Positions 21,494 through 64,000 of a stretch of 64,000 nt of DNA are shown here, piece by piece; positions within the stretch are counted from its first letter, which is position 1; the number at the start of each line of letters is the position of its first letter. The position numbers and the translations under genes were made by a program. Where the stretch lies: contig OZ025785.1 in assembly GCA_964019425.1 (NCBI GenBank), forward strand, positions 62,001-126,000, written 5' to 3'. The stretch comes from Flectonema sp. DT1601. Its lineage: Eukaryota. The notes under the pieces were generated by a model that saw only the letters and a list, made by a program, of their open reading frames with translations, ran no database searches and was not told where the DNA came from.

Positions 21494-24400
21494 TCAAGGT
21501 TTATTTACTCTAAACCGTTTTCCTATGTCCTTCACATCACACTTCAGGAATTCCGATATTATTTCTTCAAGACCGCCTCGTAGCTGAACAGCTTTCTCAG
21601 TTTGAAAATGCATCGGCGAGACTTCAATTTCATCAAATTGATTATCACCCGCACCAATCTCGATATCACAGTCGATAAAATCATTTACAATTTTCTTATT
21701 AATTCCGCTGTCGTTCGTTAGAATCCCACGAATGTCGCTAATTGGCGGAGCACAACTTATTGACAAATCTTCAAAGAGTTCTTCACCAGAAGGTTTACTA
21801 CGAAATAACCAAATTAGTAACTTCGACATCGTCGCTTTTGAATTATTTGGGTTGCTCAGCGTCGCAGGAAACACTGAACAGAGTGAGCAATATCTCGTAA
21901 TCCTGGTACCTTTGTGCTCTTTAATCACCATCGGGAATAAACCAATCGAAATACTACCGATGTCTCCGTCGTAGTCGTCAGTGTGATTTTCCAAAGGGAG
22001 TATTAAAGGACTTAATACGCTTGAGTCTTCAATTTTGATATCAACTTCAGTATCTTGCGATTGAAATATAACATAAGGAGATGTAATGGTTACAGAACGG
22101 GGTGGATTCTTATACGTGACATCTCTCCAACACTTTGATAATTGTGATATCAAATAGAGTTCTACAGGGAATTGATATGGACCTCCGTCTTCTCGAATTG
22201 CTTGAGGCTTTACAATTATTTCATCATTCGAAACATCAGTGCTTTGAATATTAAATGGGAACACCCTTCCTCGATGATTACAATTTCTTAATGTCGCAGC
22301 AACCGAAGGAATCATGTCAGGTAGCTTTACTGTGAATGAGACCTCATCTGGTTTTCGATTTAAACAAGGAACAATATTAACAACATGTGGTATAGATAAT
22401 GAAGACTGAATAATCATTAATAAAGCAATGTCATTATCCGTTGCAATGATGTTTTCAGATCGAATTGCGCGAGTGATATCAGAAAGTTTCATTTTTTTTG
22501 AAGAATTAGCGACCAACCCCTCCGGTAAAGATGGCAATAACGGTCTGTATCTGTGTAAATGATACCTCAACTGTGCTACTGTTAGTTCAAGTTGAACGAC
22601 ATTCTTTTTTCCAAAATAATTTCTGTCACACCAGGAAGTTAATTTATCGTCATCGTCATCGATCTCCCTCAACTCGTACATTATATTTAACAACACCGCG
22701 ATGTCTGATGGGAATCCTTGAGACCAATTAAGCCTAGTCTCACCTTGTCTCCTTACAGCATCATGGTATGCAGCAGCACCAACATTCTCACCATCATCAA
22801 AACTAATACTACAAGACGCTACTGCAGCTAAATCAACTGCGATTTTACCTAAACGAATATCAACTAGCGATGCTCTGGTTACTAATCTTCCGTACAAGAT
22901 GTCAACTGGTAAATTGTGTAAAATCTTTCCCAACGGTAACAATGAATACTTCATACGAGAATCACAGTGTAGAATATTGTGATTAGCGAGAGTTCTTAAC
23001 CCCTCATCAATCTTCTCAAAGGAAGGAGTTTCCATACATGTTTTAATAAGCTCAATTGGATCTTCATTCGTAGCGCTGTATTCAGTCTTGTTGAAGACTC
23101 GAAGTACCATTTCGTGAAGTGAAGTTAGCTGAATTTCTGCTTTTTTAAAAGGTTCAGCAGCATCGAATTCAGCTTTTGTTACCATTCTATAACAAGTACC
23201 AGGACAGACTCTTCCAACACGACCTGCACGTTGTTGACAAGAATCTTGTGATACTCTAACCTGAACAGTTTGCTTGAAAGGAATCCCTCCTCTCGAAAGC
23301 TGCTTACTCGATGCTCGTAACTGCACACAGCTGTCAACAACAATAGTTGCATCTGATATTGTTATACTTGATTCGGCTACGTCAGTGCTTAAGATTACCC
23401 GATATGGAGATCTGTCTTTAATTGCTTTTGCTTGTTTTTCACCACTCAGTTTTGAGTGTAATTTAAAAATTGAAACATCTGAATACATTGATAAGTAATC
23501 ATCTAAGTATAGTTGAAAATCCTTAATTGTTCCCCAACTGGGGAGGAAGACAAGTATTACTGTCGGGTTATCCATATCTCTATTTCTAATTATCAGATCT
23601 TTGACGAAAGTTTTGATGAAGTTTTCTCTTGTCCTCCACAGCACTCCTGTAAACCTCGGAGGGGGTTCTAAGACATTTCTTGCAGACGTGTGATCGTCTA
23701 AATAGGTAATCTCAAGTGGGAAGGAATGTCCTTTTAGAGCAAACGATCCCAAACACTCTTTCTTAAACCACGGATGGTCATCCCAAGAACATATTCTTGA
23801 CTCAATATAAGACACTAAAGCGTCATGAATCCGCTTTAGCGTCGCTGACATCAAGACAAGTGTCTTCCCAGAACGTAAAAAGTCTGGACGTAAAAGTACA
23901 GCCATAAGCAAATAACAATCAATACTCCTTTCATGGACCTCGTCCAGGACGATGTAGTCCCAGTTCAGGTCCGTTTTATGAATCAATTGTTTTACCATAA
24001 TACCTGTAGTGCAGTAGACAATTGGTGTAGCTTCAGTACATGTACACTGTTGTCCAATGTGATACCCAACAATATTGCTGTATCCACTTTCTTCATCCCA
24101 AGGCATCTGTCTAGCTATTCTCTCTTGAAGTACTCTTGAACTTGCTTCTGTGCAAGCTATTCTACGAGGCTGAACGCACATAATCCTTCCATTGTACTTC
24201 GCTGCCGGACCAATATGACCCAGTCCTGTTGTGTATCTGTTTTTATATCTAATTTGATCATACAGCATTTGAGGTATTTGTGTTGTCTTACCAAGACCAG
24301 TTGAACCACTAATTGTTATCACTTTGTATTGAGTTACCGTTGATCCTTGTGATTGAAACTTAACGTCTTCTGATCCCCATGTTGCTTTCAGTAGGCTCTT

Positions 24401-25246
24401 TAAACTTTCATTCGCTAAGAGAGTATCTAACGATTGAGAACTCATCCCAGAACGGTATTTTTCATAAGTGAAATCAATAAAATCATCTAATCCGCTCTTA
24501 AGCTCTTCAGTCGATCGAATGACTACTACAGGATGAGACTTGTCACCTCTCTCTTTTTCCGCATGAAAATCAGATCCAAGCGTGTCTGCATACTTGCTGA
24601 GAGTATCAGTTTGGTAGCGTAGAGATTGATTTTTAAAAAATGAATTTAAAAATACATTTCGGTAATATTTTCGACTCAGACTTGAGGAGTCCCAGGCGAT
24701 AACATGAGCTGAAACGCTTGTTGGAGATATTTTAAAGTAACTTTTAACACAGCTGGCGAAATGCTCAACGTGATCCCCGTCAGAAGACAGCAGAACAACT
24801 TTCATATGAGAAACACCCTTTAGGTTTCTGTGTTTCATTAACAAAGCCTGGATACGAGCGTCTACGTGACCAGTTTGACGACCAGCAATGTTAGCGTAAG
24901 TGTCTAGTGTGAAAAACTTATCAATCCCTCTCTCACAGAGATCGTTTTCAACAGTTTTTGAATCCACCCAATACCATTCATGAGTCGTCTCTTCAGTTTC
25001 ATTCTTTGATATCATCGGACCACTTTGAGCTATTGTTAAGTATTCATTAAGAACTTCACCAGTTAACCATTTAGGTTCTGAGTTTAGGATATGAGCACCA
25101 TCAACGATAACAATACTACTCGTTTCATCTCTTTCTACGTAAGTCTTCTGCACAAAATGACCTTCTTGTACTTCACTGCGATACGGAATTGGTTCCACTG
25201 GTAGTACTTGACCATGCAATTGCTGGTCATCATTTCTTGTGGTCAT
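21494..25246 (-). CDS. DEAH/RHA RNA helicase (TDRD9/spindle-E-like motifs) with an N-terminal NYN (PIN-fold) nuclease domain
   Basis: Helicase motifs: GSTGLGKTTQIPQ, QPRRIA, DEVHER, LMSAT, LVFLP, STDVAESSIT, QRAGRVGR, and an HA2-like LGKILHNLPVD. The N-terminus has NYN-like VIVDG, GHVDA, VVLLSSDGD and HVIAWDSSSLSR. Confidence 0.88.
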   Translation of the reverse strand: MTTRNDDQQLHGQVLPVEPIPYRSEVQEGHFVQKTYVERDETSSIVIVDGAHILNSEPKWLTGEVLNEYLTIAQSGPMISKNETEETTHEWYWVDSKTVENDLCERGIDKFFTLDTYANIAGRQTGHVDARIQALLMKHRNLKGVSHMKVVLLSSDGDHVEHFASCVKSYFKISPTSVSAHVIAWDSSSLSRKYYRNVFLNSFFKNQSLRYQTDTLSKYADTLGSDFHAEKERGDKSHPVVVIRSTEELKSGLDDFIDFTYEKYRSGMSSQSLDTLLANESLKSLLKATWGSEDVKFQSQGSTVTQYKVITISGSTGLGKTTQIPQMLYDQIRYKNRYTTGLGHIGPAAKYNGRIMCVQPRRIACTEASSRVLQERIARQMPWDEESGYSNIVGYHIGQQCTCTEATPIVYCTTGIMVKQLIHKTDLNWDYIVLDEVHERSIDCYLLMAVLLRPDFLRSGKTLVLMSATLKRIHDALVSYIESRICSWDDHPWFKKECLGSFALKGHSFPLEITYLDDHTSARNVLEPPPRFTGVLWRTRENFIKTFVKDLIIRNRDMDNPTVILVFLPSWGTIKDFQLYLDDYLSMYSDVSIFKLHSKLSGEKQAKAIKDRSPYRVILSTDVAESSITISDATIVVDSCVQLRASSKQLSRGGIPFKQTVQVRVSQDSCQQRAGRVGRVCPGTCYRMVTKAEFDAAEPFKKAEIQLTSLHEMVLRVFNKTEYSATNEDPIELIKTCMETPSFEKIDEGLRTLANHNILHCDSRMKYSLLPLGKILHNLPVDILYGRLVTRASLVDIRLGKIAVDLAAVASCSISFDDGENVGAAAYHDAVRRQGETRLNWSQGFPSDIAVLLNIMYELREIDDDDDKLTSWCDRNYFGKKNVVQLELTVAQLRYHLHRYRPLLPSLPEGLVANSSKKMKLSDITRAIRSENIIATDNDIALLMIIQSSLSIPHVVNIVPCLNRKPDEVSFTVKLPDMIPSVAATLRNCNHRGRVFPFNIQSTDVSNDEIIVKPQAIREDGGPYQFPVELYLISQLSKCWRDVTYKNPPRSVTITSPYVIFQSQDTEVDIKIEDSSVLSPLILPLENHTDDYDGDIGSISIGLFPMVIKEHKGTRITRYCSLCSVFPATLSNPNNSKATMSKLLIWLFRSKPSGEELFEDLSISCAPPISDIRGILTNDSGINKKIVNDFIDCDIEIGAGDNQFDEIEVSPMHFQTEKAVQLRGGLEEIISEFLKCDVKDIGKRFRVNKP

Positions 25247-25870
25247 GGGTTGCCTGTGAAAATAAATTCATTCTAAGCAAGCAAAAAACAAACAACACTA
25301 AAGTAAGTAAAGAATACATCAACGGTTACGTTCTCTCTTTTTATTTTTTTTCAGAAACAACAATCAAGACATAATGTAAATCTGAAAGGAAAGGAATGAC
25401 ATCAACGATAAATAAATAATAAGATACAATCTGGTAACCGTTCACTTAATAGTTGACATCAATTTAAATGACATTTGACATCCTGGTGAGGTTCCGTAAG
25501 AGATTTATTACGAAGTTCTAAAGAATAGTGCATTGCTATATCTGGATTCTCTCTTTGTATCTATGGGTAGGTACAAAATAGTGAAAACAATAATATGAAT
25601 TACTTTTCATACCAAATCTATCCCCCGAATACCAGTTGTGAAACTTCATCCTTACGACAGCACCGCTTTCTTCCAAAACCCACTACATCTTCTAGTGCTG
25701 CATACCACAAGAAGCTTTTTACATTAGTCAGAGATACTGAATTCGGATTTTCTGTGTAGAGCTAAAAGGAGTCTAAGTTAAATATTACCCCCATTAATGA
25801 TTAATTTAGAGAGAAAATGAAATAATAGTTTCAAAAGCAGCCATATAATAAACAGAGATGAGTAGCCCTG

Positions 25871-26071
25871 TTTTCACACTATCTCACGGTGGTAAAAAAA
25901 ACATGTTAACCCTTACACCACCGGAGCTGATATATCAGTCTGAAAAAAAAGTTTTTCACACTATCTCACGGTGGTAAAAAAAACATGTTAACCCTTACAC
26001 CACCGGAGCTGATATCAGTCTGAAAAAAAAAATTTTCACACTATCTCACGGTGGTAAAAAAAACATGTTAA
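25871..26071. repeat. Tandem array (about 81-bp unit) of flank + TTAA + inverted piggyBac right end
   Basis: ttttcacactatctcacggtggtaaaaaaaacatgTTAAcccttacaccaccg occurs three times, with TTAA at 25906, 25988 and 26068. The first two continue gagctgata(ta)tcagtctgaaaaaaaa, the reverse complement of about 27775-27815. Confidence 0.9.
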
Positions 26072-32844: not shown

Positions 32845-34353
32845 TTATATCCGATTGTTTCGAAACCGCTCCTTCAAAATCATTCCAACGACATCACTGC
32901 AATCTTCCAATCCCTTGAAATCTTTCTCAGTCAGTTTCGTTTTCCATAAGAATCCATTTCCTATTATAGTCAGCTTCTTCAAACCAGAAACATCGATGTA
33001 GGTGAGGGACTCACAGTTATCAATAAAGCAACGGCTAACGCTCGTAACTTCACTCAAGGAAGACAAATCCACGCTAGTCAGAGAATCCGATTTTTGCAAG
33101 AATCCATCCCCTATTTTAGTCAGCTTCTTCAAACCGGAAACATCGATGGAGGTGAGGGACTCACAGTTACTAATAAAGGAATTGCCAACACTCGTAATTT
33201 CACTCAAGGAAGACAAATCCACGCTAGTCAGAGACTTTAAATTATGCAAGAATCCATCTCCTATTTTAGTCAGCTTCTTCAAACCGGAAATATCGATAAA
33301 AATGAGAGATTCACAGTGACAAATAAAGTGATCGCCAATGCTAGTTACTTCACTCAGACAGGATAAATTAACGTGAGTCAGAGACTTCGAGTTATACAAG
33401 AACATATTGGGGATTGCCGTCACATTGTGGAAAGAAGTGAAATCAATTGACGTCAGCGAGTCACAACTGTCTGACAGGAACTCTTGCTCAAAAGCAGTGC
33501 AACGGCTGCAGTTGGTGAATGACAACCGACGGATAGAAGACGGAAGCATCTCAACACAATCACTAGAAAGGGTGCCTTCATCGTCGATATATTCTGAGGC
33601 ATCGAGGACACACAACATTTCGGGATTTTGTGTGAACAAAACGTCAATTCGAGTACGAAGATGTGAAGTTCTCAACTCCTCCGCAGTCACAACACGTTCA
33701 TACCGAGGCCATTTGTATGTTCTTTTCACAGTACCCCAGTTGTTCGAATCTTCCAGCTCACGGAGGATCTCGGCACCCCATGAGGTGTTGTCAAATTGGG
33801 ATTTGACTTCTTCCTTCGACGAGTGGGAGAGTCTCGGCCAGTCCAGCAGCAGGAAGAGTTCCTTCCTGAGTTGGGCTGGGACACCCTCCTCTGTTTCACC
33901 CATGCCCAAGTAACCAATTTGAAGTGTGTTGAAATACTCATCCTCGTTCAGCAGCCGAGGGAAGCAGGTGGACGAGAATACATTCCTCAGGTCATCTTCG
34001 ACCGGCTCCAACTTCCCGTCCCCCTTGAGATCAGCTTTAACAAACCCGAAATCGGCACACTTCATGTCAGGATGCAAGGAAAGGCTCCCCAGTAATCGCG
34101 AGCTTCCTTCCACCAACTTCGCCGACTCCTTCTCCCTCGCCACCCAGTGTACTTCCTTGTACGTCGTCAATTCAGTCGCAGCCTCAGCATCCGTCATTCC
34201 AACCATGATCTCCTCCGACGATCTGAGAACTTCTGAAAAGCTGTCCATCAGCGCCCCTGACTCCTCCTTCCGACTCACCATTTCCACGAGCAGCTTCGCC
34301 ATGAACCTCTGATGGCTCCTCAAAACAGAGGACAGGGAATCGACAGTTGCCAT
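32845..34353 (-). CDS. LRR family copy 2 (502 aa, 7 LRRs, C-terminal type B)
   Basis: Intact ORF, near-identical N-terminal domain, ends GMILKERFRNNRI. Confidence 0.9.
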   Translation of the reverse strand: MATVDSLSSVLRSHQRFMAKLLVEMVSRKEESGALMDSFSEVLRSSEEIMVGMTDAEAATELTTYKEVHWVAREKESAKLVEGSSRLLGSLSLHPDMKCADFGFVKADLKGDGKLEPVEDDLRNVFSSTCFPRLLNEDEYFNTLQIGYLGMGETEEGVPAQLRKELFLLLDWPRLSHSSKEEVKSQFDNTSWGAEILRELEDSNNWGTVKRTYKWPRYERVVTAEELRTSHLRTRIDVLFTQNPEMLCVLDASEYIDDEGTLSSDCVEMLPSSIRRLSFTNCSRCTAFEQEFLSDSCDSLTSIDFTSFHNVTAIPNMFLYNSKSLTHVNLSCLSEVTSIGDHFICHCESLIFIDISGLKKLTKIGDGFLHNLKSLTSVDLSSLSEITSVGNSFISNCESLTSIDVSGLKKLTKIGDGFLQKSDSLTSVDLSSLSEVTSVSRCFIDNCESLTYIDVSGLKKLTIIGNGFLWKTKLTEKDFKGLEDCSDVVGMILKERFRNNRI

Positions 34354-36592: not shown

Positions 36593-36629
36593 GGTGTTGC
36601 CCCTCCTCTTCTTGGAATACCTTTGTCAG

Positions 36630-41404: not shown

Positions 41405-41521
41405 TATTTTTAACTGGATGAGTTTCTGGTGATGAAGAATTAATTCAAAAGATACGTAACTTCAATTCAAGAATGAAGGAAACTGCTTGTATTCATTAGA
41501 CAAACGATTCCACATATTCTT

Positions 41522-41697
41522 ACATCAATCATCTGGAGAAGGTTTACTCAGAGGAGAATGTGGATGGGCTTCACTCTATTATCGCAGACCATCTTTATAT
41601 GAAGCAAACCCGCTTTCTGCGAGAATTACAACAAATATTCCTCGAAGAGCATCAAACACTAGAACCCGACAATAATGAACATAAGCCCTCCCCAGAA
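41522..41697. repeat. Dispersed ~175-bp duplication, second copy at about 51023-51197
   Basis: catcaatcatct.ga.gaaggtttactcagaggagaatgtggatgg...cataagcc is shared. Both copies lie upstream of type-B LRR genes. Confidence 0.9.
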
Positions 41698-41775
41698 GGC
41701 ATGATATTATGATTCACTATGAAAGAGTAAACAATGGACAACGGGATGTTCTTGTTGATAGACTCTGTGGGCTCC

Positions 41776-43751: not shown

Positions 43752-44595
43752 TATTTTTAAACTGGATGAGTTTCTGGTGATGAAGAATTAATTCAAAGGA
43801 TACGTAACTTCAATTCAAGAACGTAATTCACATGATAACTGACACCAGAGAACAATCATCGCTACTCACTATGACTGCGGAATTAATTAATTTAAATACT
43901 TGTATTGCGTGTACTTCATGGAGGGGTGAAACTTTCACAATGTAAAAACAATAACAACTTTAGGTATTAATACAAAAACTAATATCAAAGTATTCGATTG
44001 AATAGTTGTTAATAAAAGAAAAAGTTCGTTGTCTCATTGACCAGAAGACGTTGTCGAATCTGGTAATTCAGGGACCACGTACTATCAGGTTGAGAGTCCA
44101 ATCCGTTACAACTTACACTTAAATAAAATAAAAAGAACAAAACAGTTCGTATTACAGGACTAGTTAGTAGTACACTGCTAGCGGCGTACTCTTGCGTGGA
44201 GGGAGTTAATTGATTTCGAGTGAGCTCATATTGTGAAAACAAAAAGTTATAAAAACACAATTGTTCTGCTGTTCCATAAGCCACTTGCGGAATACGTAGT
44301 TTCAGGAGCCTTAATCTTATACTACTTGTCCCTCTTAGGTCTTCATCAGTAAGTTCTGACGGACTTCACTCCAGTTCTTCAGAATCAGACATTGACAAAT
44401 ATGATTTCGCCAAGACGGGCTGGTATATACTTGGTTTTGATCAGCTGAGTTCCATGTAATGTAAAAACAATAACAACTTTAGGTATTAAAACAAAAAGAA
44501 TCGGCACCTCACTAAATAATTCTCACACTTTGTTTTTCTTTGTGCGCAACCGGACCCCTTAATATTTAAACACTTCCCTAATTTCTTTTAGGAAC

Positions 44596-44814
44596 GCACG
44601 TCAACACCGCAACGGACCTCCACCAGAGTTTCCCCGGCTTCGTCCTATCCAGGCATAGTTCACCATCTTTCGGGTCCCAATAAGTGTACTTTACCTCAAA
44701 TCCTTTTCCAATAAATCGGGATCGGGCTGTGCTACACCCCCAGGGGTTGGCACATAAAGACCCTTTCAGTGCGGCTAATGGGTTTGACACCCTAAACCTT
44801 TGCACACGCGTTAG
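44596..44814 (-). rRNA. Isolated ~220-bp fragment of eukaryotic LSU (28S) rRNA, not a functional gene
   Basis: The minus strand contains GGGACCCGAAAGATGGTGAACTATGCCTG...GAAGCC..GGAAACTCTGGTGGAGG...TGACGTGC, the conserved core after the D3 region. No further rDNA is seen on either side. Confidence 0.85.
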
Positions 44815-50734: not shown

Positions 50735-51460
50735 TATTTTTAACTGGATGAGTTTCTGGTGATGAAGAATTAATTCAAAGGATACGTAACTTCAATTCGA
50801 GAACTTTTTCTCAAAAAATCATGAAAATCATGAAAATCATTAAGATAGTGGGTGAGCTGATACATTTCCCAGCTGCTTGAAGTAGTCTCGTGACTACTGA
50901 TTCATCAAAATGTCAATTCAAGTACGATGATGTTGTAGTGCGATACGAAGATGATTGACTACTGCTATTGATGGTCTATCCCTAAGCACTGACAAAGAAC
51001 CACAAAAACTCAATCTTGAATTCATCAATCATCTAGAAGAAGGTTTACTCAGAGGAGAATGTGGATGGGCTTCACTCTATTATCGCAGACCATCTTTATA
51101 TGAAGCAAACCCGCTTTCTGCGAGAATTACAACAAATATTCCTCGAAGAGCATCAAACACTAGAACCCGACAATAATGAACATAAGCCATCCCCAGACGG
51201 CTGGTTTTCTCTTAGCTTCTCGGAATGGCAAGCAAACAACAGCTCAACAGGGATATCCGACGATTTGTCGACTCCGGAGCTTTCGATTATCCACAACATG
51301 TTTGCCGCCTTATCTTAACAACAAAACAAACACACGAATGTCGTATCTCGTATCTCATTCGATTCTATAATTATTCGACACATTCAAAAGGTAAAACAGA
51401 TCAACGATTATCTTTTCATCAATTCGACAGACTTCGTCAAACGTTCGGAATCTAACTTTC

Positions 51461-52935
51461 ATGTGTGTGTTTGCTTCTCTGGTTTCAAGCACAGCAAGGG
51501 GGATAGTGCTTGCAAGTGATACACCGGAACGCGTGGATTCTAGTTCCCTACAAGAAGTATGGGCCTACAAGTTCCTGGAACGGAAGGGTTGGTCACACCG
51601 TCGTGGAACCACTGCGAAAGTAGCGCCTGAAGCAGAACTTGCATCAGCTCGGTTAAGGTTTCTGGAACGCATCTCCAGTGCTCAAATACATGGTGCAATT
51701 CCTGACAACATGGTCATTAACTTTGACCACACCCAGTGCCTGATGCTTCCATCAAGCAAGTGCACCTTCAATGCCAAAGGTGCCAAGTCGGTGCCGATAT
51801 AATTCACCGATGATAAGCGGGGCGTCAGCGTAGAACTGGGTTGCTCGATGACAGGGGACATGCTCCCTATGCAGGCCATCTACAAGGGAAAGACGGCTAG
51901 ATCAACTCCACACAGCCACCCTTGTCTCGAACACCGAAATGTTGTGCTGTTAACCAGTAATCTAAGAGGGTGGGCAAACGAAACAACAACCATTGAGTAC
52001 CTTCAGAAAGCAATAGTCCCATACTTTATTAAAAAACGCCAGGAGCTGGGACTCGAATCGGATCACCCTGGCCTCGCAGTATATGACCAGTTTAGGGGGC
52101 AGATAACTGAAGAGGTCCTTCGTAGCTTTGACTTCTCATCTCCGGCCGCTGGATCTAACTGTCATGGCCAACTTCAAAAGAAGCATCAAGCTTTCCTTTG
52201 GAGAGTGGCTGACAGAGCAGACGCGCAAGCGGGAGGAAAAATTAAAAAAATCAAATCAAAAAGCTGATAGAAACGCTAAGCGCGCTGCGAAAGGGAAGGA
52301 TCCAAAAGAGGTTGCTGAATCTGAACCCACGAAGGAGCTCACAAAAACGAAGACCATTCGAGGGCCGCAAATTGAGTGGATAGTAACAGCCCTTGATAGC
52401 ATTACGAAAAAATAGTATCACAGCTGGTTTTATAAAAGCAGGTATTGTCAATCCTGTAAATCCACCCGAGCTACTGCTCAAATATTCGAACGAAGACGAC
52501 GACGACTTCATCAGAGTTACCACCCCGACGGGGAAGTGCAAGAAACAGCTTGATGATATTGTGCCACCTGTGAAGAACCCAAAACTTGAATTGCCAATTG
52601 TTGTAGAAGTTAAGTCTTTTCCTACACCCTATGCTTCAGCGAACACACAGAAAGTGATCTGTCTTACGTATTCAAGTTCATGTGTAACAAGCGAGCCCAT
52701 TAGGTTCCGTGGTTGCTTTCCTCTAGACCTGGCTTGCCCTCCTGAAGTCCGTAGTTGTGAACATGAGTTCATGTTTCTTAATACCGCACCTCACACCTCG
52801 GTGGGGTCACACTGGCTACTGGCTGTAACAACTATTGGGGAAGGGAACTCCTTAGTTGTAGTTGATCCTCGTCTCACCAGCAATACTTGCTGGCACCGAA
52901 AAATCATACTGGTGGTCCTTTGGCATTTGCGTTAA
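51461..52935 (+). mobile_element. Degenerate pogo/Tigger-type (DDE_1) transposase with a C-terminal cysteine-protease-like region
   Basis: WAYKFLER...RRGTT, INFDHT, DKR.VSV, GDMLPMQAIYKGKT, GWAN, YDQFRGQ, LRPLDL.V..NFK and I.AGF.KAGI. There is a stop at 51800 and frameshifts near 52130 and 52410. Then FRGCFPLD...FLNTAP...GSHWL...VVDP. No TIRs identified. Confidence 0.8.
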
Positions 52936-53571: not shown

Positions 53572-56157
53572 TTAATTAGATTCAAACATCCTACAAGACG
53601 TCGGTGGAGTATCTCCCAAATAGTATTGCAATTCCCACCGGCCGTCTCTCTCACGCCACACTCGAAGGTTATCAGACGCCGTTATTATAACATTGCCATC
53701 AGATGAAACAATGACAGCTTGTACCTTCTTAGAATGGCCTTCTAATGTGTGTTTTACTATACCCTTAGAAGACTGCAAAGTGATCATTTTTTCATTACAA
53801 ACTACGAAGTCACCGTTTCGTAGACTACTCGGGAGGATAGAAAGATAAGAAGAAAGAGAACATCCGATGGCTACACCTGTTGCTGCTTCCCATTGAAAAA
53901 ATTCACCATTGAAAACGCCAACAAGAAATTTTCCGCAATCCGAGAACGTGACATTCTTAACCTGCTGGGATATCGTTAACTTGGATTTCAACGTGTCTGG
54001 TGAGAGAAGCAATACATTCTCGGGAGTGGCACATGCTACGTTCTCTGTTGTGCATGCGATGTCCACAATTTCGATGTCCACAATTTCCTTTGCTAAAGAC
54101 CTGCTCGTCGGTTGCAAGGTTTCGTTGAAGACTTCCAGTTTGTGTTCAGCCCCAACGAATATAGACAACGATTTGCCATCGCGGCGGACAGCCATGCATG
54201 AATAAGAAATATTAATTTCATTCCTTGTAGCGACTACATTCCAATGAGTTTTTACGAATACTTTGATCTCACTTCGTGTCATAGTGACGAGGTACAATTT
54301 AGAGAGAGAGAGTGAGACAACATAATTATCTTTTGAATTACTGCTGGCCCGCAGACGAACGTGTTCAGTACCATTTTGCAAGTTCCAAATTATGACAAGG
54401 CCACTTTCACAGCCACTTGCCACTAAATCTGAATAAATTGAAACATGAGTGACATTCTGCTTGTGCCCTTGGTGGTGTACTGGTGAATAACCATCTTCAC
54501 GTGTGTTCCACAATCGAACAGTGTGATCATCGTCGCTGTATCCCGAGGTGGTAATATATTCACCATTGCTTGAGTATCTTATTGACATTACTTTACATCC
54601 ATGTCCATGAAGTTTTCTGTCGGGCTGCTTCTTTAGCAAACTAATTATTTCAACTTCTTTCAAACCTCCCAACGCCACGTAGTTCCCGCAAGTCGAGAGT
54701 GCCAGCCCACCGACATTTCCTGGAAGTTTCATCCGTTGTTCGTACTTCTCATTAACTTTACTCCAGATGTGAATCATGTTTTCGCCATCTTTCCAAGCAA
54801 AATCGATTTTAGCGTTGTTAACCCCCATTGGGAGAACAGCAATTTGCTGCGTATGGCTTGCGATAGATTGTAACAACTCATACGACTTCTCCATACGTCT
54901 CCATATCACGATTTCTTTGCCCTGTACACAAACTAAGTCACCTGCTGGAGTGTATGCTATACTCTTTGCCGCTCCGTTTACTCCCTCATGGTTTCTCCAT
55001 AAGGGTTCTTCTTGATCACCGTTCTTAACAACATCCCACACCATGACAGACGGCTTGCCTCCGTACTTTAGAGCAACTGCCAAGTGCGCATCATCAGGTG
55101 AGAAGACTAGGTCGTTAAGTAAGATATCCCCCTCTTCATGTTTAAGACAATTATACTTCCCTTCTTGGAATGGACTCCAGATAACCACTCTCGCAGAATG
55201 ATTAGTACCTGCATCAGAGCAAGTAGCAAGTAGAATGTTTTTATCATCTTTCGCACTGTTACAAGCAATTCCACTTATAAACAACGGATGGTACTCACTC
55301 AGATTTATCTTCTTAACAACTTTCCCAGTAGCTGATGAGTACAATCCGACATGATTATTGAAAGCGGCGACGACGTATTCGCTGGATGACGTGAATATCG
55401 ATTTCACTTTTGCATCCACACTAATCGGAGGTAGCCTTATGTCGAACGTCGGGTTATCAATTTCTGCATACTTAAAATTGCAACGCATCATAAGGCACCT
55501 CTTGAAGTCACAATTGATGAGAAACGATCCTTCAAAATTCACTTCAACTAAACAACCACCACAAAAACTCACATCCTCCAGGCGCAGACCGGACAAATCT
55601 TCACCAAATAACGTGCAACCTGAAGAGACTAACAACGACAATGCGTTGCTAGCGATGGTACGTTTCTTCTCAACTTCCTTCTTAACTTCCCTCTCAACTT
55701 CGGATGTCTTAACCAGAGGAAGTAATTTCTTACTCAACTCGTCGTGGTTTCCGGTACTTTGTTGAATGAGTTTGTGCTGTTCTAAGATTCCTGGCTGGGT
55801 TTTCGAAAAGCGTAATTTCGACAGCATCTCCCTCAACTCATCTTCACCACACTTGGCAATGTGACTGGCAATTAGATATTCAGCCAACGTTTTGTGATGA
55901 AATCTTACAACACCCATCTCGTAGTACACGGGCAGAAATATCACCAGTCTCTCGAACTCGGCTATCTCTTTGTCGTCTTTGAAATAGTTTGACGCCTTTC
56001 CTCCCCAGTGCCCTTGTTGCAGCATACGACACGCCAGCATCTCTGCCATGCGTTTCACATCCGCAGATTTTATTAGGTTTTCTTTCTTTTCATCTTCCAA
56101 CTGTTTCTTAATAAATCCATCGATAAACGCTTTGTAAACCGTGGATTTACTTGTCAC
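53572..56157 (-). CDS. Last exon of an NLR-like gene: winged helix + pentapeptide repeats + WD40 repeats
   Basis: Phase-0 acceptor aacaaacAG|GTG. Motifs: FHHKTLAEYLIA, ASNALSLLV, EDLSGLRLEDVSFCGGCLVEVNFEGSFL, and WD40 units such as GHGCKVMSIRYSSNGEYITT...TVRLWN, GHKQNVT...VIIWN and GHSKKVQAV...LRVW. Confidence 0.88.
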   Translation of the reverse strand: MTSKSTVYKAFIDGFIKKQLEDEKKENLIKSADVKRMAEMLACRMLQQGHWGGKASNYFKDDKEIAEFERLVIFLPVYYEMGVVRFHHKTLAEYLIASHIAKCGEDELREMLSKLRFSKTQPGILEQHKLIQQSTGNHDELSKKLLPLVKTSEVEREVKKEVEKKRTIASNALSLLVSSGCTLFGEDLSGLRLEDVSFCGGCLVEVNFEGSFLINCDFKRCLMMRCNFKYAEIDNPTFDIRLPPISVDAKVKSIFTSSSEYVVAAFNNHVGLYSSATGKVVKKINLSEYHPLFISGIACNSAKDDKNILLATCSDAGTNHSARVVIWSPFQEGKYNCLKHEEGDILLNDLVFSPDDAHLAVALKYGGKPSVMVWDVVKNGDQEEPLWRNHEGVNGAAKSIAYTPAGDLVCVQGKEIVIWRRMEKSYELLQSIASHTQQIAVLPMGVNNAKIDFAWKDGENMIHIWSKVNEKYEQRMKLPGNVGGLALSTCGNYVALGGLKEVEIISLLKKQPDRKLHGHGCKVMSIRYSSNGEYITTSGYSDDDHTVRLWNTREDGYSPVHHQGHKQNVTHVSIYSDLVASGCESGLVIIWNLQNGTEHVRLRASSNSKDNYVVSLSLSKLYLVTMTRSEIKVFVKTHWNVVATRNEINISYSCMAVRRDGKSLSIFVGAEHKLEVFNETLQPTSRSLAKEIVDIEIVDIACTTENVACATPENVLLLSPDTLKSKLTISQQVKNVTFSDCGKFLVGVFNGEFFQWEAATGVAIGCSLSSYLSILPSSLRNGDFVVCNEKMITLQSSKGIVKHTLEGHSKKVQAVIVSSDGNVIITASDNLRVWRERDGRWELQYYLGDTPPTSCRMFESN

Positions 56158-56230
56158 CTGTTTGTTGATTTTGACCTTACTAACTTCCCTGTATTGATCA
56201 AAGGAACTACCAGTATTTAATTACACATAC

Positions 56231-56998
56231 CCCTTCGTGATGAGTCGTGGTCGCCATGTAGAGGAGTTGTGGGCTGCTGAGCTCACACCAAACTCTTCGT
56301 TGCTTCAGCTTCTCAATATTCTTTTGCACATCTTTGTTGATCTTTATCATTTTCTCACCAAAATCGTCTCTCTGTTTGGTGCTAAAGGGACGCAGATAGT
56401 AAGAATTGGCATCATCACCAAGGAGATCTTTTGGAGTGAGTCCTCGTCGGATGAAATTTTCAGTTCTGCTCGTGAGGATAACCCACGACTCTGATAACAA
56501 CAACGGGTTGAGTTTCAGTAAGTCGGTACCGGAGTCACCGACAACGTTTGCAGTTCCTTCATCAAAGGAATCAAGAACTATAACAACAGTGTAGGTGAAT
56601 AGTTGTTTGATATCACAATCAGGTGGAAGCATATTCTCCACGATGTACTTGTCGATAGCATGCGGCTCAAATGCATTTCCGACACTTCCCATCGACACAA
56701 ATACTGGGAAGTATTTCTCATTCAATTCTCTAATTAGTTTGACCCCCGCAGAAGTCTTCCCCCCTCCAGCCTCTGACTGCAGTACGAGTGGGGGTCGGTC
56801 GTCACTCTCAAGAAGGTCTTTAATCAATTTAGTTAAGCTGATGTCTTCAATTCCCTCTCTGCTGGTGACGCATTTGCACAAAGTCGGAACAAGTTTGCAC
56901 AAAGTCGGATCGACGTAACAACGTTCGAATTTTGCAAAAACGTATGTCGCAAGTGTGCACCACACCTCGCGCATTTGTTTCAACTGCTCCGATCTGGC
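56231..56998 (-). CDS. NACHT/STAND NTPase exon
   Basis: Walker A LVLQSEAGGGKT, Walker B VIVLDSFDE, sensor VILTSR, LRPFS and SPQLL. Donor GGG|GTATGT at 56230 joins in frame to 56157. A candidate phase-0 acceptor is ccacAG|GCC at 56999/56998. Confidence 0.85.
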
Positions 56999-57179
56999 CT
57001 GTGGTTTTTTATTACTCTCTTTCCCACAAGAACGACAACGGGCATACTCGTATAAAACATAAAGAACGTTCCTATAAGTATCCCTAAATGAAGGGGGTGA
57101 AAAACAAGAAAAAAAGTGAAGTCAAATGTTTCTCACCCAACATCACTCGCAAGTGAAAACAAAAGGCTAAGTTACAAAC

Positions 57180-59042
57180 TTTAACGAAATCATTAATCCG
57201 TTCGGTGCTTTGCAAGAAAATGATGTCACAGCTGCATCCAAAAATTCGTAACGTGCTGGGATTGTACACCCACAAGACTCGGAAAGTGGCATCATAGCTG
57301 AACAATGACTCTTCTTCCTTCTCTTTGACAGATAGCGGAGCAATATTCGCGGCAAACCCTAAGACAACGAGCAAAGAACAACGTTCTTTCCTCATAAAAG
57401 CATTTGTGCCTTCCACTTTCCGTGAAGTTGAAAAGAAATGATTAAACGACTTTATCTCACCTACCTCGAAATCCTTTGCAGAAAATCGGCTGTCTCCCTT
57501 CCACAGTAAGCGGTGCTCTGGAGGAAACCTCAGCAATGCTTTTCGTAAGTGATAAATAAACGGTTTGAGGTATTCGACGTATTTTTTATTTTCAGGATCG
57601 GTTTTCTCGTCGTTTCGTGCGACGTTGTACATTGATTCTTTGATCTTAGAAGTTCCGTAAAACACTGGCGAGGTGTAACAAACGGTAGCAATCAACATCT
57701 CCAAGGCATCTGTTGGGTCGCTGCCTATCAGACTAGCCATCCAAGGCTCAAAGTCACTCTTTAATTCTAACTTTTCTTTGAATTTGTTTACTTTTTCTTG
57801 AATTTGATCAACTACTTTGTTAAGTTTGCCATCTGCCCACTTAAGAGGAGACGACGGTGAAGCGATTCGCTTTTCCTTGCCGGTAAACAACTTTATGAAT
57901 TCCTTTTTCTTGGGAATGTAACCGTTGCTGAGAAAGTGATACGCGCCAGCATCTTCTGTATCTCTATCTGAGTTGCATTGATGTTCGTCATCCCCATCGG
58001 AACTCTCCGTTTCCCAGGTTTCAATAAGTTCTTTCAGCCTTTCGATGTTTTCTGTATACGATTTCGACAGTTCCCTCAACACCTCTACTGACAACCCTCC
58101 TTGAGCTCCGTTGACTAAAGGCGTTTCATTCGATGAGTTTGTTTTTACTTTAGATTGGTCATCCATGTTGTCAATCAGTAATCGGGTCATTTCATTATGA
58201 CCACACCAACAAGATCCATGAAGACTGTTTGATCCTTCGGAAGTTGTCATCGTCAAGTTGCTCTTTACGGTGTCAGAGCTCTGAATCCATTTCTCCATCA
58301 AGTTATGATTACCACTTCTGGCAACAATGTAAATCATAGGCCACGCAGACTTCCCAAAACATCTGCCGCTGGGGATCTCCATTTTCTTAAAATCTTCCCA
58401 GGAAACATATTCAATAAGGGAAGGCATCATTCTGTAACAGGAGTTTTGTTTATGAGTGTCCGCAGTGTTCTTTAGAACTCTGCGGAGTGCTTGTGTGCAA
58501 TTGGTTGCTTTAGCATCATCACTCAGCTCGCTTAGAAGTATCTGAAGACATTTGCAATCATCATTCTCCAAACAGAGGATCACAGTTGAGATGTTGATCT
58601 TATTCTCAGTGTGTGTATTTATTATCTTCTCCAGAACCATTTCCATCAACTTCGGGAAGTATCTGACTACGATATTTAATAATTCTTTCATAGTCTCGCT
58701 GTTATCCTTAAACTTATCAATCGCCCCATCATGTCTACCATACTTCGCAATGTGACTGGCAATTAGATATTCAGCCAACGTTTTGTGATGAAATCTTACA
58801 ACACCCATCTCGTAGTACACGGGCAGAAATATCACCAGTCTCTCGAACTCGGCTATCTCTTTGTCGTCTTTGAAATAACTCGATGGCGTTCCTTCCCAGT
58901 GCCCTTGTTGCAGCATACGACACGCCAGCATCTCTGCCATGCGTTTCACATCCGCAGATTTTATTAGTTTCTCATTTTCATCTTCCAACTGTTTCGCAAT
59001 GCCGTCGATAAACGCTTTGTAAACCGTGGATTTACTTGTCAC
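57180..59042 (-). CDS. Exon encoding winged helix + ankyrin repeats + R-S-E-type ADP-ribosyltransferase domain
   Basis: Second FHHKTLAEYL segment. Ankyrins: IYIVARSGNHNLME, GSNSLHGSCWCGHNEMTRLLI, NETPL. ART: CYTS...LRKALLRFP...LWKG...FFSTS...IAPLS..EKEEESLF...TFRV. Candidate phase-0 donor AAA|GTTTGT at 57179. The first exon is uncertain (possibly 59203-59132). Confidence 0.8.
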
Positions 59043-59538
59043 CTGTTTGTTGATTTTGACCTTACTAACTTCCCTGTATTGATCAAAGATTAATTACCTT
59101 CTTCAAAAATAGATTTCGTATTTGCACACACCTCGCCTGTGTGATTCCACTGCTCCAAACCAACCTGTTTATCTTTCATAGCAACATTGAAGTGCTCTGT
59201 CATGTCACTTTCCCGTAGAAATACTGTAATATGAATTAAAAAGAACAGCAGTTTAAACAAAAAGATGCAGTCCACCAGACAAATGCCACATCGGTGACGA
59301 GCTTTCTTTTCCTTCTGTTCCTTAGTATTTGACTTATTTCATCCTCCAGTCATTTTTAACCCTAGACGGTATTAAGCAAAATAATCAGTGTTAAAAAGAT
59401 AAAACAAAACAAATTGCTGCACCAACTCCCAGTTTGACGTAGGAGATGGCTATCTCCTGTGTGAGATTACAATCACAAAGAATGAGACAGAGAGCATACT
59501 GTTCTTAGTCTACATTCTAACACGGAGGCAGCACTTAC

Positions 59539-62500
59539 TTAAACACTTCTAGGGTCTACATATCCAACTCCTCCCTTTGCTTCTCCCGGAGACATAACAT
59601 CACTCACACGCATACCTTCTAATATACGTTTAGCGATATTGGTTGCAATATCTTTTGCGAGTTTTTCAAAAGCCTCCTCTGATACTCCGGGTTTTTCAGA
59701 TGTGTTGAAGTCAAGAAGAGTATACTTACCGCCGGTGTCTTTCGCAATTTTTCGGAAATCATTATACGGTTCTTTCAGAGCATTAATCTTATGCAGAGCA
59801 TTAGTGTGGACGGGGATATTGGCGCTCTTCAGTTTTTGGACTTCAGCTTCAAAATCGGTACAATATCTCATGAACGATCGTTCTTTTTTCCAGTATGCTT
59901 CACCCTTAATTTCCTCACGCATTTTCTTCACTTTATTCTTTGGGTGGGGGGGAGCATCACCAGTAATCATAACAGCACTACGAGAATCCTTTTTAAATTC
60001 TTCATTCGCATAGGCAAGAGCAACTTCGATTGCCTCTTCGCCGTCACGGAGTTTAAAATGTGTTGAATCACCGCTTCCAATATGAATATTTTCTAAGAAA
60101 TCTTTTAGTTTGTCTGAATCGCTGGAATCTTTCCATCCCGAGATTGTAATTAAATGATCAGCATCTTTATCATAGTTACGATAGCCGACGATGTTTATTT
60201 CGAATCCCCTTTCGATACCTTGCATTTCAAGAATCAGTCCTATACCACGGAGTAACTGATCGAGAGTTTCTCTTACAGCATCAAATACAGGTTTCATTGA
60301 TGCCGTGGCGTCTATGCACAGCATTAATCGAAATGGGTTTTTGTCGGCGTTTGTCTTGACTATACATCTATTTATATTCAGAATGTAGTCTTGAATTTCT
60401 TCCACTTGAGCTTTGTGTTGTTCACTGCCAGGTGGAAGATCTTTCAGTTTTTTAAGGTTCTCTATAAAGTTCTTCCCCTCATCGTGATGACTTGTAGTTC
60501 TTTGCGCGTCCGTGGTTGCGTCAAGGAACTTCTTATCGTGGTGTTCGTCTCTTATTTCTTTTATGGCTTTGCGAACTTCGTCTATACGACGTTTGTCATC
60601 GGATGTGCTACCAGCTTCTTTCAATTGATCAATTTCATCCTCAGACATGTTGAAGTGATTACCTTTACGCAAGGAGTTCACATCAAATATGAGAGCCCAG
60701 CTACCTGGTTCTCCTTGGCGACCTACTCGACCTCTGGCTTGTGCCTCATCAGCCTCTGTGGGACTTAAGTATGTTTGGATTAGTAAGACTCCGTTGACTC
60801 TGGGTACTCTGACATCAGTTGTTTTTGGATCAATTCCTCTGGAGAATGGGTGAGTCATTGTTGATAATGTATTCATTTTAGGAATCTTATTAATCCCAGG
60901 ATGTTGTGAATTAATCTCACTATTCTGTGAGTCACCAATTGTTGAATTATCGTTTAGAGTATTGTGCTCAAACTTTCGAGAATCCAATTCATCAATTCGA
61001 CTGCACTTTTGGAAATCTCTTCGGTCCGAGTCCTTATCAAATAAAATACAGATTGGTCTTTTAGGATCCTCACTCGTTGTCTGTTGTAATATGAAGTCAA
61101 TGATTGCGCCGTGAAATTCCATTTTGTTTGCATCACCGCCAGTGTCTGTAACTTGCACTGTGGGCACGTTAATTTGTTTGTGCTCGTCACGGAAAGCAGA
61201 AGGCATGTAAGACTTGTGCACATCTTTAAGGGTTTCTTTAATCAAGCCGATTTCACTCTCGTGCATAGAGCTCAGAGTTCCCGTGAGCGCCAAGACAACA
61301 TCGTATGCTTCAACTATGCGTGCATATGCGATCTTAGCCCCAATAATATTTAGTACGATGTAGTGATTTCTTTCTTCCGTGGAAATGCTGCCTTCACTGT
61401 GAGCTGCAAAGGCGTGCCACATGGTCTTGTAGCTGTGTCGCTTCGTGTAAGATTTTCCGTGATTGTCTTCGTAGCAAATCCTCCGTTCCTTGCTTTCTGG
61501 ATCAATACCAACAAAGTAGGACTCTTTTGTATATGTGAATACATCCCTTAGCATGAGTCTCACGCAGCTCATCATTAATTTCTCCCAACGAGGATTATAT
61601 TTGCTAATTTCCCCAACACACTTCTTATACTCATCAGATTCAAATATCATTGTTTGATAATCAAATAAAGATTTTTGTGAACGAGACTTCTTCCATATCA
61701 GTTCAGCTAATGCCGTTAGTGACTCAAGTTTGAGAGTTTCCAGAGCAACGTACTCATTGGCGTAGTTTTCAAAATTCCAAAGTGTGTCCATTTCATCAAT
61801 AATTGCGATGGTCTTACCGGAAGTTATCCTATCACCTGTTTTGAGTTTATAATATTCTTTTAAACTTCGACTCCCTCACTACTGAAGTATGGTCATGGTG
61901 AGCAGCAAAAGATAATTTTAGTTTCCGTTGAAAAAGTACATACCTGAAACTGACTCTGGAGCAGCTCCCTTGGTAATAGCACAGGCGAGTCTCATTCGCA
62001 TGCTGCTTGAACCAGAGAGTATCCGTTCGCAGTGGTTTTCGTAGGTGTCCCAAGTGATCTTTCCACCTATACGAAGCTCCTCAAAAAGACGACGAAATCC
62101 CTCGTAATCACGTTTACAGAGATAATCTGAATAACACATGCAGTGAATAGTGTTTCCAAGAATAGCAAGCACTGCAGCAGCTATGGCTATAACAATAGAC
62201 TTCCCTTCACCAGTTAAGATTTCTAGGAAATGGTGTTTTAAGTTATCAATATTATACTCATGTGAGAGGTATGTTTCCGGATCAGATGTTTTGATATCAA
62301 GCGCCAGCATTCTGAAAACTGCGAGAACTTGAAGGACGTTGGGAGTGACAATAGCTGATTCTCTTCCACTTCCTTCAAGTACGGCTGTGTCTGTTGATCG
62401 AATAGACCATAAGGTGAATAGAGAAGTACATAGTTCCAGTACATCTCCATTTGTTACTTTAATCTCATAGTCTTGCATTTTTTTCACAAAATCTTTCAGA

Positions 62501-64000
62501 TCATCAACCCTTCCGCTTTTCACTCTTTGTTTCCAATTAACCTCAAATATTGTGTACATTGTTTTGAGACGTTGCTTATTAACAGGGGAATTCTTTGTGT
62601 CTTCGAATAACAAATTTAGTGCCTTTTCAATCGTCATGTGCTTCGTTTTATTATTTCGATCCTGAGTGAGAACTGCTTGGAAGACACTTCCATGGTCATT
62701 TTGTAATCCCTTAACATAGCTGGCTAAAGTATCATCTGTGTTGATATCAGTAAGGTAGTCCCTTACCATTGATAAACTAGAGAGTGTAGATGTTGTTGAC
62801 GATTCTGTTGATTGACGTAGTTCTGAGAACACGCCTGCAATGCTCTCCGTAACTGATATCTGATCTCCAAGCACTTGTAGTGTCAACAATCTGAGTGCAA
62901 GTGTCTTAGCAGCACTCTCCCTTTCTTTACATTTATCAAACGTTTTTACCCATTTAGTAGTTTGTTCCACAATCTTATCGGATAAGGTTTTCAGACATTC
63001 TCGTTTACTATCTGCGATGATTGTTTTCATCCTGATATCTATTTGAACATCGCTAGGCACGGCGTCATCATAGAATTTCAATAATGTACCGAGGGGTGCA
63101 AAAGTGGAGATCAGTTTTTTTTGATTTTCCTCATCTCCTACCACTACATGGTTCACTGAAACCTCGTTAACAATCCTAGTGATGACTTGATTTGTTGTGT
63201 CTTTCAATTCCTTAAAATAAGATTCGATGGCTGATGTCGCTGATGTCTTCCTCGTGAGTGTGTCGTTGTTGGAATCGACTAAGCAACGAATGCTGGTCAG
63301 AGAATTCCACACATCAATATAATACTCGTGTCCTCCCTTGTTAGTTTCTGTCCACCTTTTCTTGATTTCCAGAAGAGCAGAGTCTATACCGTCACCAAGT
63401 CCCTTGACGGTTTCCTGAAGTTGCTGTGTGGCATTGCTATGTGGAAGCCACGCAAAATCGCTCATTCTGTCGCGTAGACGACTACCATAAAACACTTTAA
63501 TAGATTTATCATTATTCTGAATGGCTTTAATTGATTCTAATAATGTTTTATCCGGAAGCTTTTGACACGCGGTCACGCAGGCTTCGTTCAACTTCTTAAA
63601 TTTCAACAAAGCTGTATCTAACTCCTCTTCTACTCTTGACACCGTATCCAGCCCCCCAGACAATAAGATATCTTTTAAAAACGGAATAAGTTCATGGACA
63701 GCATTGCAATCAGACTCGGAAATATCAGATAACCCCTCGTTATAAGATCGTAACTTGTCGGACAGATCCCCGGAATGTTTTTTAAAATGTTCATCCGCAC
63801 TCGTTACCCAGCTGCTTATGGTATTTTTAACTTTCTCTTGCTGTTCTTTGGGGGCATCAAAGCCCTCGACAACGGGCATAAAATCGTTCCAAGATTTCTT
63901 AAAACTGACTAAGGCAGAAACACTGCTGGATGGGTGTTTCCAATTTTTTACAAACAGTTCCGCACTATTCTCAAGTGGAGGTAATATTTCACTGAGGTAC
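59539..64000 (-). CDS. Large SecA-like SF2 ATPase + vWA-domain protein (5' end outside window)
   Basis: The frame is open to 64000, and intron 61943-61836 (G|GTATGT...aaacAG|GT) joins the two ORFs. SecA-like motifs: EILTGEGKS, YSDYLCKRD, IAIIDEMD, LALTGT, FSRGID and QARGRVGRQGEPGS. vWA motifs: MIDAS-like LCIDATASM, VGYRNYD, EEAIEVAL and ITGDAPPH. Confidence 0.88.

Follow-up and report, generated by a model that had tools for sequence, protein, structure and literature searches.

Little of the cell-autonomous immunity of free-living protists has been mapped, and the locus described here raises the question of whether genes that resemble parts of immune systems, and that stand side by side in a protist-like genome, work together or only live together. 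The locus covers 21.5 to 64 kb of a 64,000-nucleotide (nt) stretch of contig OZ025785.1 (positions 62,001 to 126,000, forward strand), the whole of which is called the window below, and a first-pass annotation had read it as an innate-immunity island of sensors, switches and effectors. It would comprise four units: an array of leucine-rich repeat (LRR) genes; a NACHT-WD40 gene preceded by an open reading frame (ORF) with ankyrin repeats and an ADP-ribosyltransferase (ART)-like domain; a gene that joins a SecA-like ATPase to a von Willebrand factor A (vWA)-like domain; and a DEAH helicase gene (Table 1). The reading that we favour, as about an even call, is that lineage-specific genes of an intron-poor eukaryote, which do follow one another on one strand, form a fast-evolving neighbourhood of conflict-type families rather than an integrated immune island. 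The domain types that the annotation had called recurrent in conflict systems are confirmed by Pfam and NCBIfam for NACHT, WD40, LRR and helicase, and, as had also been stated, no recognisable housekeeping gene was found between 21.5 and 64 kb in ORF and Pfam scans.

In the LRR array, an orphan protein with no membrane segment is encoded by seven tandem copies that have arisen by birth and death. The seven cytosolic paralogues announced by the annotation are present as seven minus-strand copies, all of which match LRR families of Pfam and none of which displays a hydrophobic segment or a signal-like N-terminus, but only five of the seven are intact, one (L4) lacking an ATG and another (L5) being truncated and rearranged. 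The highest mean hydropathy over 19 amino acids (aa) on the Kyte-Doolittle scale is 0.78-1.26 in six copies, against 2.88 in a membrane-protein control. An N-terminal domain of ~295 aa, 91-94% identical at the nucleotide level among paralogues by self-similarity, is accompanied by 7-23 repeats per gene with a 150-nt period, in which units of 25 aa of two types, A (consensus SLTSVDLSSLSEVTSVGDxFIxxCE) and B (SLTSIDVSGLKKLTxIGxxFLxxSK), strictly alternate. Four copies match the BspA-type family LRR_5 (PF13306) with expectation values (E) of 1e-15 to 4e-27, while LRR_4, LRR_8 and LRR_EndoS are matched instead by the other three. The upstream flanks of the copies are near-identical (99.3-99.6%), and the copies thus show recent duplication or gene conversion. 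BspA-type LRR proteins occur in Trichomonas, Entamoeba and bacteria, and LRRP/ESAG8 families are found in trypanosomes. With BspA-type (LRR_5/TpLRR) proteins the window family shares the type of repeat, large lineage-specific expansion and organisation in tandem arrays; it differs from them in its orphan N-domain, in the strict A/B alternation of 25-aa units and in having neither signal peptide nor membrane anchor. Stop-free frames also run antisense through LRR genes on the plus strand (29903-30379, 33407-33913, 37793-38260, 40464-40964 and 47251-47721); these are not regarded as genes, since they are a by-product of the codon composition of the repeat.

The N-domain of these proteins is, as far as the comparisons reach, an orphan without relatives outside its own family. 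A search of 5.8 billion proteins yielded 16 matches among 5595 candidates, all of them 88-100% identical, distributed over contigs of 582,638 bp (seven matches), 162,182 bp (six; the window's own contig), 464,183 bp (two) and 34,730 bp (one). The six on the window's contig are four window genes and two genes that lie beyond the window (P0006 and P0009, 85% and 96% identical to L6, respectively), and the family therefore extends past the stretch analysed. The domain has no Pfam match, its best PDB profile match has an E of 1.4, and neither the metagenome scan nor the viral scan returned a relative. An AlphaFold model built on a nine-row, ~94%-identical alignment reached a predicted local distance difference test score (pLDDT) of 50, too poor for a fold search, with four helices predicted in the first ~95 residues (pLDDT 60-71).

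Sequence variation among the copies is unevenly spread. Pairs of N-domains have synonymous divergences (dS) of 0.04-0.08 and a mean ratio of nonsynonymous to synonymous divergence (dN/dS) of 0.50 (15 pairs), and since this dS is lower than that of the LRR region, homogenisation of the N-domain by gene conversion is suggested. Within the repeats, variability falls on positions 15/18/19/22 of type A and 11/15/17/18/19/22/24 of type B, positions that were picked on 72 repeat units outside the window and measured in 83 regular units within it, so that circularity was avoided. The dN of the variable positions over the dS of all sites is 1.25 for A (bootstrap 0.95-1.80) and 1.28 for B (1.08-1.59), and the ratio to the variable positions' own dS is 1.03 and 0.88, respectively; non-variable repeat positions have a dN/dS (omega) of ~0.3-0.4, and the canonical beta-strand residues (LTSVDLS and LTSIDVS) are nearly invariant. 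The pattern points to roughly neutral change at a few positions on a constrained scaffold and is compatible with diversifying selection without proving it. The LRR proteins could, in such a scheme, act as variable binding proteins whose variation is limited to a few positions per repeat.

Among the genes of the island, the NACHT-WD40 gene has the best claim to being of immune type. The NACHT and WD40 domains named in the annotation are both confirmed, the former (PF05729) at 27.1 bits for a cut-off of 26.7 and the latter with an E of 4e-20, and pentapeptide repeats are detected at 21.3 bits (cut-off 20.2). The NACHT exon and the pentapeptide-WD40 exon are inferred to form one gene through a 73-nt phase-0 intron; the only paralogue of the NACHT ORF, P0018 (74% identity; 2 matches among 474 candidates), ends with the same read-through from HHEG into VCVI as exon B. 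The layout recalls NACHT-WD40 STAND NTPases, such as the fungal HET-E/NWD-type, animal NWD1/TEP1-like and bacterial NACHT antiphage proteins, with which it shares a NACHT P-loop with Walker A and B motifs, a winged-helix-like module after NACHT, C-terminal WD40 repeats and a variable upstream domain, here ankyrin plus ART-like. It departs from them in the 73-nt intron that splits the gene, in the pentapeptide repeats placed between winged helix and WD40, and in an upstream Ank-ART ORF that opens with a second winged-helix copy and is putatively fused to NACHT; moreover, the window's WD40 repeats have no self-matches at the DNA level, unlike the hypervariable repeats of fungi. In NCBIfam the NACHT ORF matches the anti-phage NACHT-type model DS8 with an E of 2e-5, far below the cut-off, and pieces of the winged helix also match anti-phage NACHT models, far sub-threshold. 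By analogy, the protein could work as a STAND switch, in which a ligand bound at the repeats would lead to nucleotide-dependent oligomerisation and deployment of an effector, a role that would fall to the ART-like domain should the 181-nt putative intron join the two ORFs.

The upstream ORF, called ORF A here, has a single paralogue, P0020 (69% identity; 2 matches among 1771 candidates), and the winged-helix/ankyrin/ART arrangement is old, since P0020 has the same layout. The ankyrin repeats that had been proposed are seen as an Ank_2 match (E 1e-5), but at 26.3 bits this falls just short of the cut-off of 27.3. The R-S-E clade of ARTs is defined by a catalytic Arg, an S-T-S motif and an E-x-E motif. 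The order of these motifs is kept in ORF A, where S-T-S and E-x-E are present, and the Arg is found only in P0020, whose motifs are LLWRGD, FFSTS and EQE; in both proteins the match covers positions 67-201 of the 222 of the ART profile. With R-S-E ARTs it shares S-T-S and E-x-E in the expected order; it differs from them as a domain inside the cell rather than a secreted one, with links to ankyrin repeats and to a STAND gene. The winged-helix module is duplicated (55846-56203 and 58737-59088, 94% identity), the duplicate includes the intron acceptor of exon C, and ORF A begins directly after this acceptor copy. Over ~100 aa the module is near-identical in both window copies and in P0020, the rest of the proteins being 60-70% identical, which suggests gene conversion or strong constraint. 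The end of ORF A lies ~110 nt from the NACHT ATG. Fusion of ART, NACHT and WD40 through the 181-nt intron is somewhat favoured over separate mRNAs, given that no more than ~85 nt lie between the upstream stop and the acceptor AG; the same AG (56999) could serve as the spliced-leader acceptor of a separate NACHT-WD40 mRNA. A different, canonical-looking intron (GTGAG...TTTAG) joining ORF A to the NACHT ORF was rejected, as the resulting frame stops at 56983.

A second locus resembles this part of the window. On the 34,730-bp contig the LRR members P0013 and P0172, the Ank-ART protein P0020 and the NACHT protein P0018 are found together, so that there are two loci at which LRR family members accompany the ART/NACHT pair. 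The N-terminus of P0018 is a piece of the repeat element seen in the window at 41500-41709 and 51037-51315 (both plus strand), and the element therefore lies just upstream of the NACHT exon there, in the orientation of the gene. The adjacency of LRR and NLR genes would predate the duplication that gave the second LRR, ART and NACHT locus. Among the four units, the link between LRR and NLR is the only one with any support, that of the two loci, and duplication alone would carry such adjacency along.

The gene at the right-hand end of the island is a compact, ~1400-aa member of a widespread, uncharacterised eukaryotic family. The joined exons agree in length with the closest homologue, P0022 (1397 aa), which aligns collinearly with the second lobe of the motor and the vWA, at 46% identity across residues 2-745 of exon 2. 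The SecA-vWA ATPase of the annotation stands for its motor, SecA_DEAD being matched with an E of 8e-11 (profile positions 93-147 of 290 only), but the vWA match (VWA_2, E 1e-4) is below the cut-off. A SecA2 structure in the PDB is matched with an E of 3e-5, a ~110-aa stretch of the downstream ORF matches SecA2 NBD2 with an E of 0.005, and exon 2 has no PDB match. SecA/SecA2 translocase ATPases share with the window protein a two-lobed DEAD-like motor with the SecA-type Walker A TGEGKS and the Walker B IIDEMD; the window protein differs in its C-terminal vWA and in belonging to a eukaryotic family whose members are often ~3000 aa long. Only short motor segments match, and the preprotein-binding, scaffold and wing domains of SecA were not detected. 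Representative relatives of exon 2 number 908 at E<=1e-3, of which 130 reach E<=1e-30; many are ~3000 aa long with the module at the C-terminus, and among 12 scanned relatives SecA_DEAD was present in all, P-loop_SecA in five, and VWA_4, a GTPase domain and a Rad17 P-loop in one each. Of the 14 members looked up, those that are named come from Flectonema neradi, a diplonemid that supplies the three closest named matches (41-46% identity), and from Rotaria and Hydra; Rotifera also appear among the relatives in Atlas. A candidate splice of this gene to the NLR gene was rejected, since a TAA stop precedes the GTAAGT. A word search of open-access papers returned no literature on eukaryotic SecA-vWA proteins; for background, SecA-like domains in bacterial toxins are treated in PMC8195603.

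At the other end of the island lies a divergent helicase gene, for which the annotation had proposed a NYN nuclease joined to a DEAH helicase. The helicase half is clear (HrpB, TIGR01970, E 2e-44; HrpA model, E 5e-38; DHX36, E 6e-39, with DHX36, DHX29 and DHX9 in the range 6e-39 to 8e-37), but the NYN half was not confirmed, the N-terminal ~300 aa having no Pfam match at E<=10 and no PDB match. Its VDG... and SSDGDH motifs are NYN-like, NYN clusters stand at ranks 2 and 3 in Atlas (0.79), which is a lead only, and an AlphaFold model of residues 25-270 (pLDDT 33) is too poor for a fold search. The protein shares with DEAH/RHA helicases (DHX36, DHX29, DHX9, HrpA/HrpB) the core with its DEVH motif, here DEVHERS, and Helicase_C; it differs in that an E of ~1e-39 is far from orthologue level, in that HA2/OB-fold is not detected by Pfam, and in its unique termini, the N-terminal ~300 aa and the C-terminal ~450 aa having no assigned domain. 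Helicase and SecA-like/vWA gene would both be no more than neighbours of the LRR and NLR genes.

The island had further been described as a co-oriented block. Its genes do lie on the minus strand, but this is a regional feature and no property of the island, since the housekeeping flank at 1-21 kb, which contains an intron-bearing P4-type ATPase gene and genes for a Rab GTPase and for a cysteine-rich membrane protein, points the same way. The minus strand carries 24 of the 31 ORFs of at least 150 aa, including those of the flank; the seven on the plus strand are five antisense shadows within LRR genes, an inverted LRR fragment and one in a repeat element, and the cumulative GC skew falls monotonically over the entire window. 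Diplonema papillatum has unidirectional arrays of 5-120 genes and near-universal spliced-leader trans-splicing, according to PMC10161547, and the orientation of the window fits such arrays; it would follow from a unidirectional, likely polycistronic, genome architecture, and in genomes of this kind co-orientation is uninformative on shared function. The single-celled eukaryote that the annotation had assumed is supported: the window is eukaryotic and protist-like, with a eukaryotic large-subunit ribosomal RNA (LSU rRNA) fragment, short GT-AG introns and closest named homologues in a diplonemid, and its lineage is likely that of a diplonemid-related euglenozoan. The introns have G/GTATGT donors and A-rich ...ACAG acceptors, boundary signals that the island shares with the P4-ATPase gene of the flank; PMC12621601 gives (G)/GTATG donors for three diplonemids and an A-rich tract for Diplonema japonicum. 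A metamonad origin, which the ACAG-type acceptors had suggested, gave way to the diplonemid lead. An alternative genetic code was ruled out, since TAA, TAG and TGA each terminate ORFs.

A number of observations weigh against an assignment of these genes to conflict systems, for whose immune role there is no direct evidence. PADLOC returned no match for six of seven island proteins, and its match of the helicase core to a Cas3 model (E 8e-4, 17 bits) amounts to generic helicase similarity. The LRR region evolves at a dN/dS of 0.43-0.57 (dS 0.15-0.26 in the collinear trio L2, L4 and L7), and at the variable sites a dN close to dS would fit neutrality as well as diversifying selection. Of the proposed ART-armed NLR there remain an ART-like match and the S-T-S and E-x-E motifs (FFSTS and EEE in ORF A), but the match to ART (PF01129) is sub-threshold both in ORF A (21.3 bits, E 2e-4) and in P0020 (18.8 bits, E 1e-3) for a cut-off of 22.3, ORF A carries LLWKGD, with a Lys at the position of the catalytic Arg, the splice from ART to NACHT is unproven, and no ATG stands close to the 5' end of ORF A. 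The adjacency at the second locus was carried over by duplication and so adds no independent evidence for a functional link. The euglenozoan placement is a lead drawn from the best matches of one gene family (41-46% identity) and from architecture, and even the Rab GTPase lacks a named relative at an identity of 90% or higher. Finally, polypyrimidine or poly-T tracts of 16-35 nt occur within 400 nt upstream of the ATG in all six left-flank genes, compared with upstream polypyrimidine tracts of just 0-13 nt in all eight island genes, and such weak tracts could mean poor expression.

The strongest competitor of the conflict-type neighbourhood, possible though clearly less probable than it, is a repeat-rich junkyard in which multigene families, repeats and pseudogenes pile up without shared function, the role of the LRR proteins being non-immune, for example as protein-interaction adaptors. 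Trypanosomatid subtelomeres accumulate LRRP, RHS and helicase families in this manner. Such an account would accommodate the two damaged LRR copies, the rRNA fragment and pieces of a multi-copy repeat inside the array, the partial duplications in the NLR region, the near-neutral rate of change of the variable LRR sites, the want of strong upstream polypyrimidine tracts in island genes, and a GC content of 0.37-0.46 in the island versus 0.30-0.42 in the left flank; together, the polypyrimidine and GC contrasts may mark two genome compartments or differing mRNA-processing signals. It is less easily reconciled with the long open frames and intact motifs of five LRR genes, the NACHT-WD40 gene, the SecA-like gene and the helicase, with the constraint on the N-domain and the non-variable LRR positions (omega 0.3-0.5), and with the conservation of the Ank-ART/NACHT layout between paralogues that are 69-74% identical.

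An integrated immune island, in which the LRR sensors would signal through an ART-armed NACHT-WD40 protein while the SecA-like/vWA ATPase and a nuclease-helicase act jointly as effectors, is unlikely. In its favour can be counted the adjacency of four kinds of gene with no housekeeping gene between them, the company of LRR, ART and NACHT at the second locus, the weak match of the NACHT ORF to DS8 and the fact that vWA-plus-NTPase and STAND modules with varied effectors are parts of prokaryotic conflict systems, as described in PMC7159879. Yet an all-against-all BLAST of the island proteins disclosed, apart from the winged-helix duplication, no adaptor or homotypic module in common; a single tandem expansion accounts for the seven LRR genes, which leaves just four independent units; the one unnamed SecA-like paralogue whose contig was looked up (P0023, the closest) belongs to a 268,708-bp contig on which no LRR member is listed; and the NYN nuclease is unconfirmed, the co-orientation not special to the island and the PADLOC match weak and confined to the helicase core. 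Similarly doubtful is a further proposal, according to which a diplonemid-like flagellate would possess an NLR-type module of its own, made of orphan, copy-number-variable cytosolic LRR proteins and an ART-armed NACHT-WD40 protein, with the SecA-like/vWA ATPase and the nuclease-helicase as recruited neighbours; in that module the helical LRR N-domain, as modelled, may be an execution or oligomerisation module. If true, it would be the first immune gene cluster described in the abundant marine diplonemid lineage, and a word search of the open-access literature turned up nothing published on diplonemid NACHT, LRR or ART families. Giant viruses commonly carry families of repeat proteins (LRR, Ank, WD40, pentapeptide), and BspA-type LRRs are frequent in bacteria, but an integrated viral or bacterial segment, which the GC slightly above that of the left flank might also suggest, is very improbable given that spliceosomal introns share boundary signals with the flanking P4-ATPase gene, that three scans of viral contigs found no relative, that the named SecA-like family members are all eukaryotic and that no tRNA or bacterial feature was found in the window. 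What the conflict-type neighbourhood offers, where two loci keep a NACHT-WD40 gene and ART-like module beside an orphan LRR family that is expanding, is a testable immune-system candidate; diplonemids are reported to be among the most abundant marine microeukaryotes (PMC10161547).

Table 1. Coordinates of the features discussed, in window positions
Feature	Position	Strand	Detail or basis
Divergent DEAH/RHA helicase, single exon, 1250 aa	21494..25246	-	Helicase_C E 2e-10, DEAD E 4e-5
LRR paralogue L1	28117..30819	-	900 aa, intact, 23 repeats of 25 aa
LRR paralogue L2	32845..34353	-	502 aa, intact
LRR paralogue L3	36922..38700	-	592 aa from ATG 38700, intact; listed ORF to 38841 (upstream TTG)
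LRR paralogue L4	39920..41404	-	Family start codon is ATA; next Met 17 codons downstream; listed ORF 39920-41374
LRR paralogue L5	42331..43305	-	324 aa, 5'-truncated, most of N-domain gone
Inverted LRR N-domain fragment, local rearrangement beside L5	43330..43791	+	43332-43741 matches other copies reversed, 92-94%
Eukaryotic LSU rRNA fragment, 269 nt	44546..44814	-	94 bits, E 6e-21, model positions 675-954
LRR paralogue L6	45543..48161	-	872 aa, intact
LRR paralogue L7	49232..50734	-	500 aa, intact
Degenerate multi-copy repeat element, ORFs frame-broken	50955..52935	+	Shorter copies 41460-41982, 25246-25461
NLR exon C: winged-helix-like module, pentapeptide repeats, WD40 propellers	53572..56157	-	861 aa; acceptor ...AAACAG ends at 56158
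Intron, 73 nt, GTATGT...AAACAG, phase 0 both ends	56158..56230	-	Inferred from sequence
NLR exon B: NACHT NTPase	56231..56998	-	GGGKTS (Walker A), LDSFDE (Walker B)
Putative intron, 181 nt, donor GTTTGT, acceptor CCACAG, phase 0 both ends	56999..57179	-	Read from sequence
ORF A: duplicated winged-helix module, ankyrin repeats, ART-like domain	57180..59042	-	~650-aa ORF; first ATG ~50 codons in
SecA-like/vWA exon 2: IIDEMD Walker B, second motor domain, vWA	59539..61835	-	Pfam, NCBIfam
Intron, 108 nt, GTATGT...AAAACAG, phase 1	61836..61943	-	Inferred from sequence
SecA-like/vWA exon 1: ~550 aa with no assigned domain, then SecA_DEAD motor with TGEGKS	61944..63879	-	Pfam, NCBIfam, PDB

The spaces between the genes hold a few further features. 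Of the transposon debris reported at first, what holds is a multi-copy element present in the window and elsewhere, but the best family match among 22 intergenic ORFs is DDE_1 with an E of 0.072. The LSU rRNA fragment is located between two LRR genes, far from any ribosomal DNA unit, and low-complexity ORFs of 87-213 aa, rich in Lys, Thr and Asn and with no family match, occupy 34590-36625 (minus strand) between L2 and L3. No tRNA genes were found in the window, and a scan for bacterial promoters and terminators, irrelevant in a eukaryote, gave 28 sites where 24.6 were expected and 8 where 10.9 were, which is no enrichment.

In the left flank, the P4-ATPase intron (10514-10760, minus strand) opens directly at a stretch of over 30 T, and other genes on this side are flanked by similar A/T homopolymers of up to ~32 nt. 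The cysteine-rich protein at 18622-21165 (minus strand) has one strong transmembrane segment and a C-terminal tail of ~35-aa repeats rich in Pro, Ser and Thr (105-nt period, 84-88% identity, 18682-19091).

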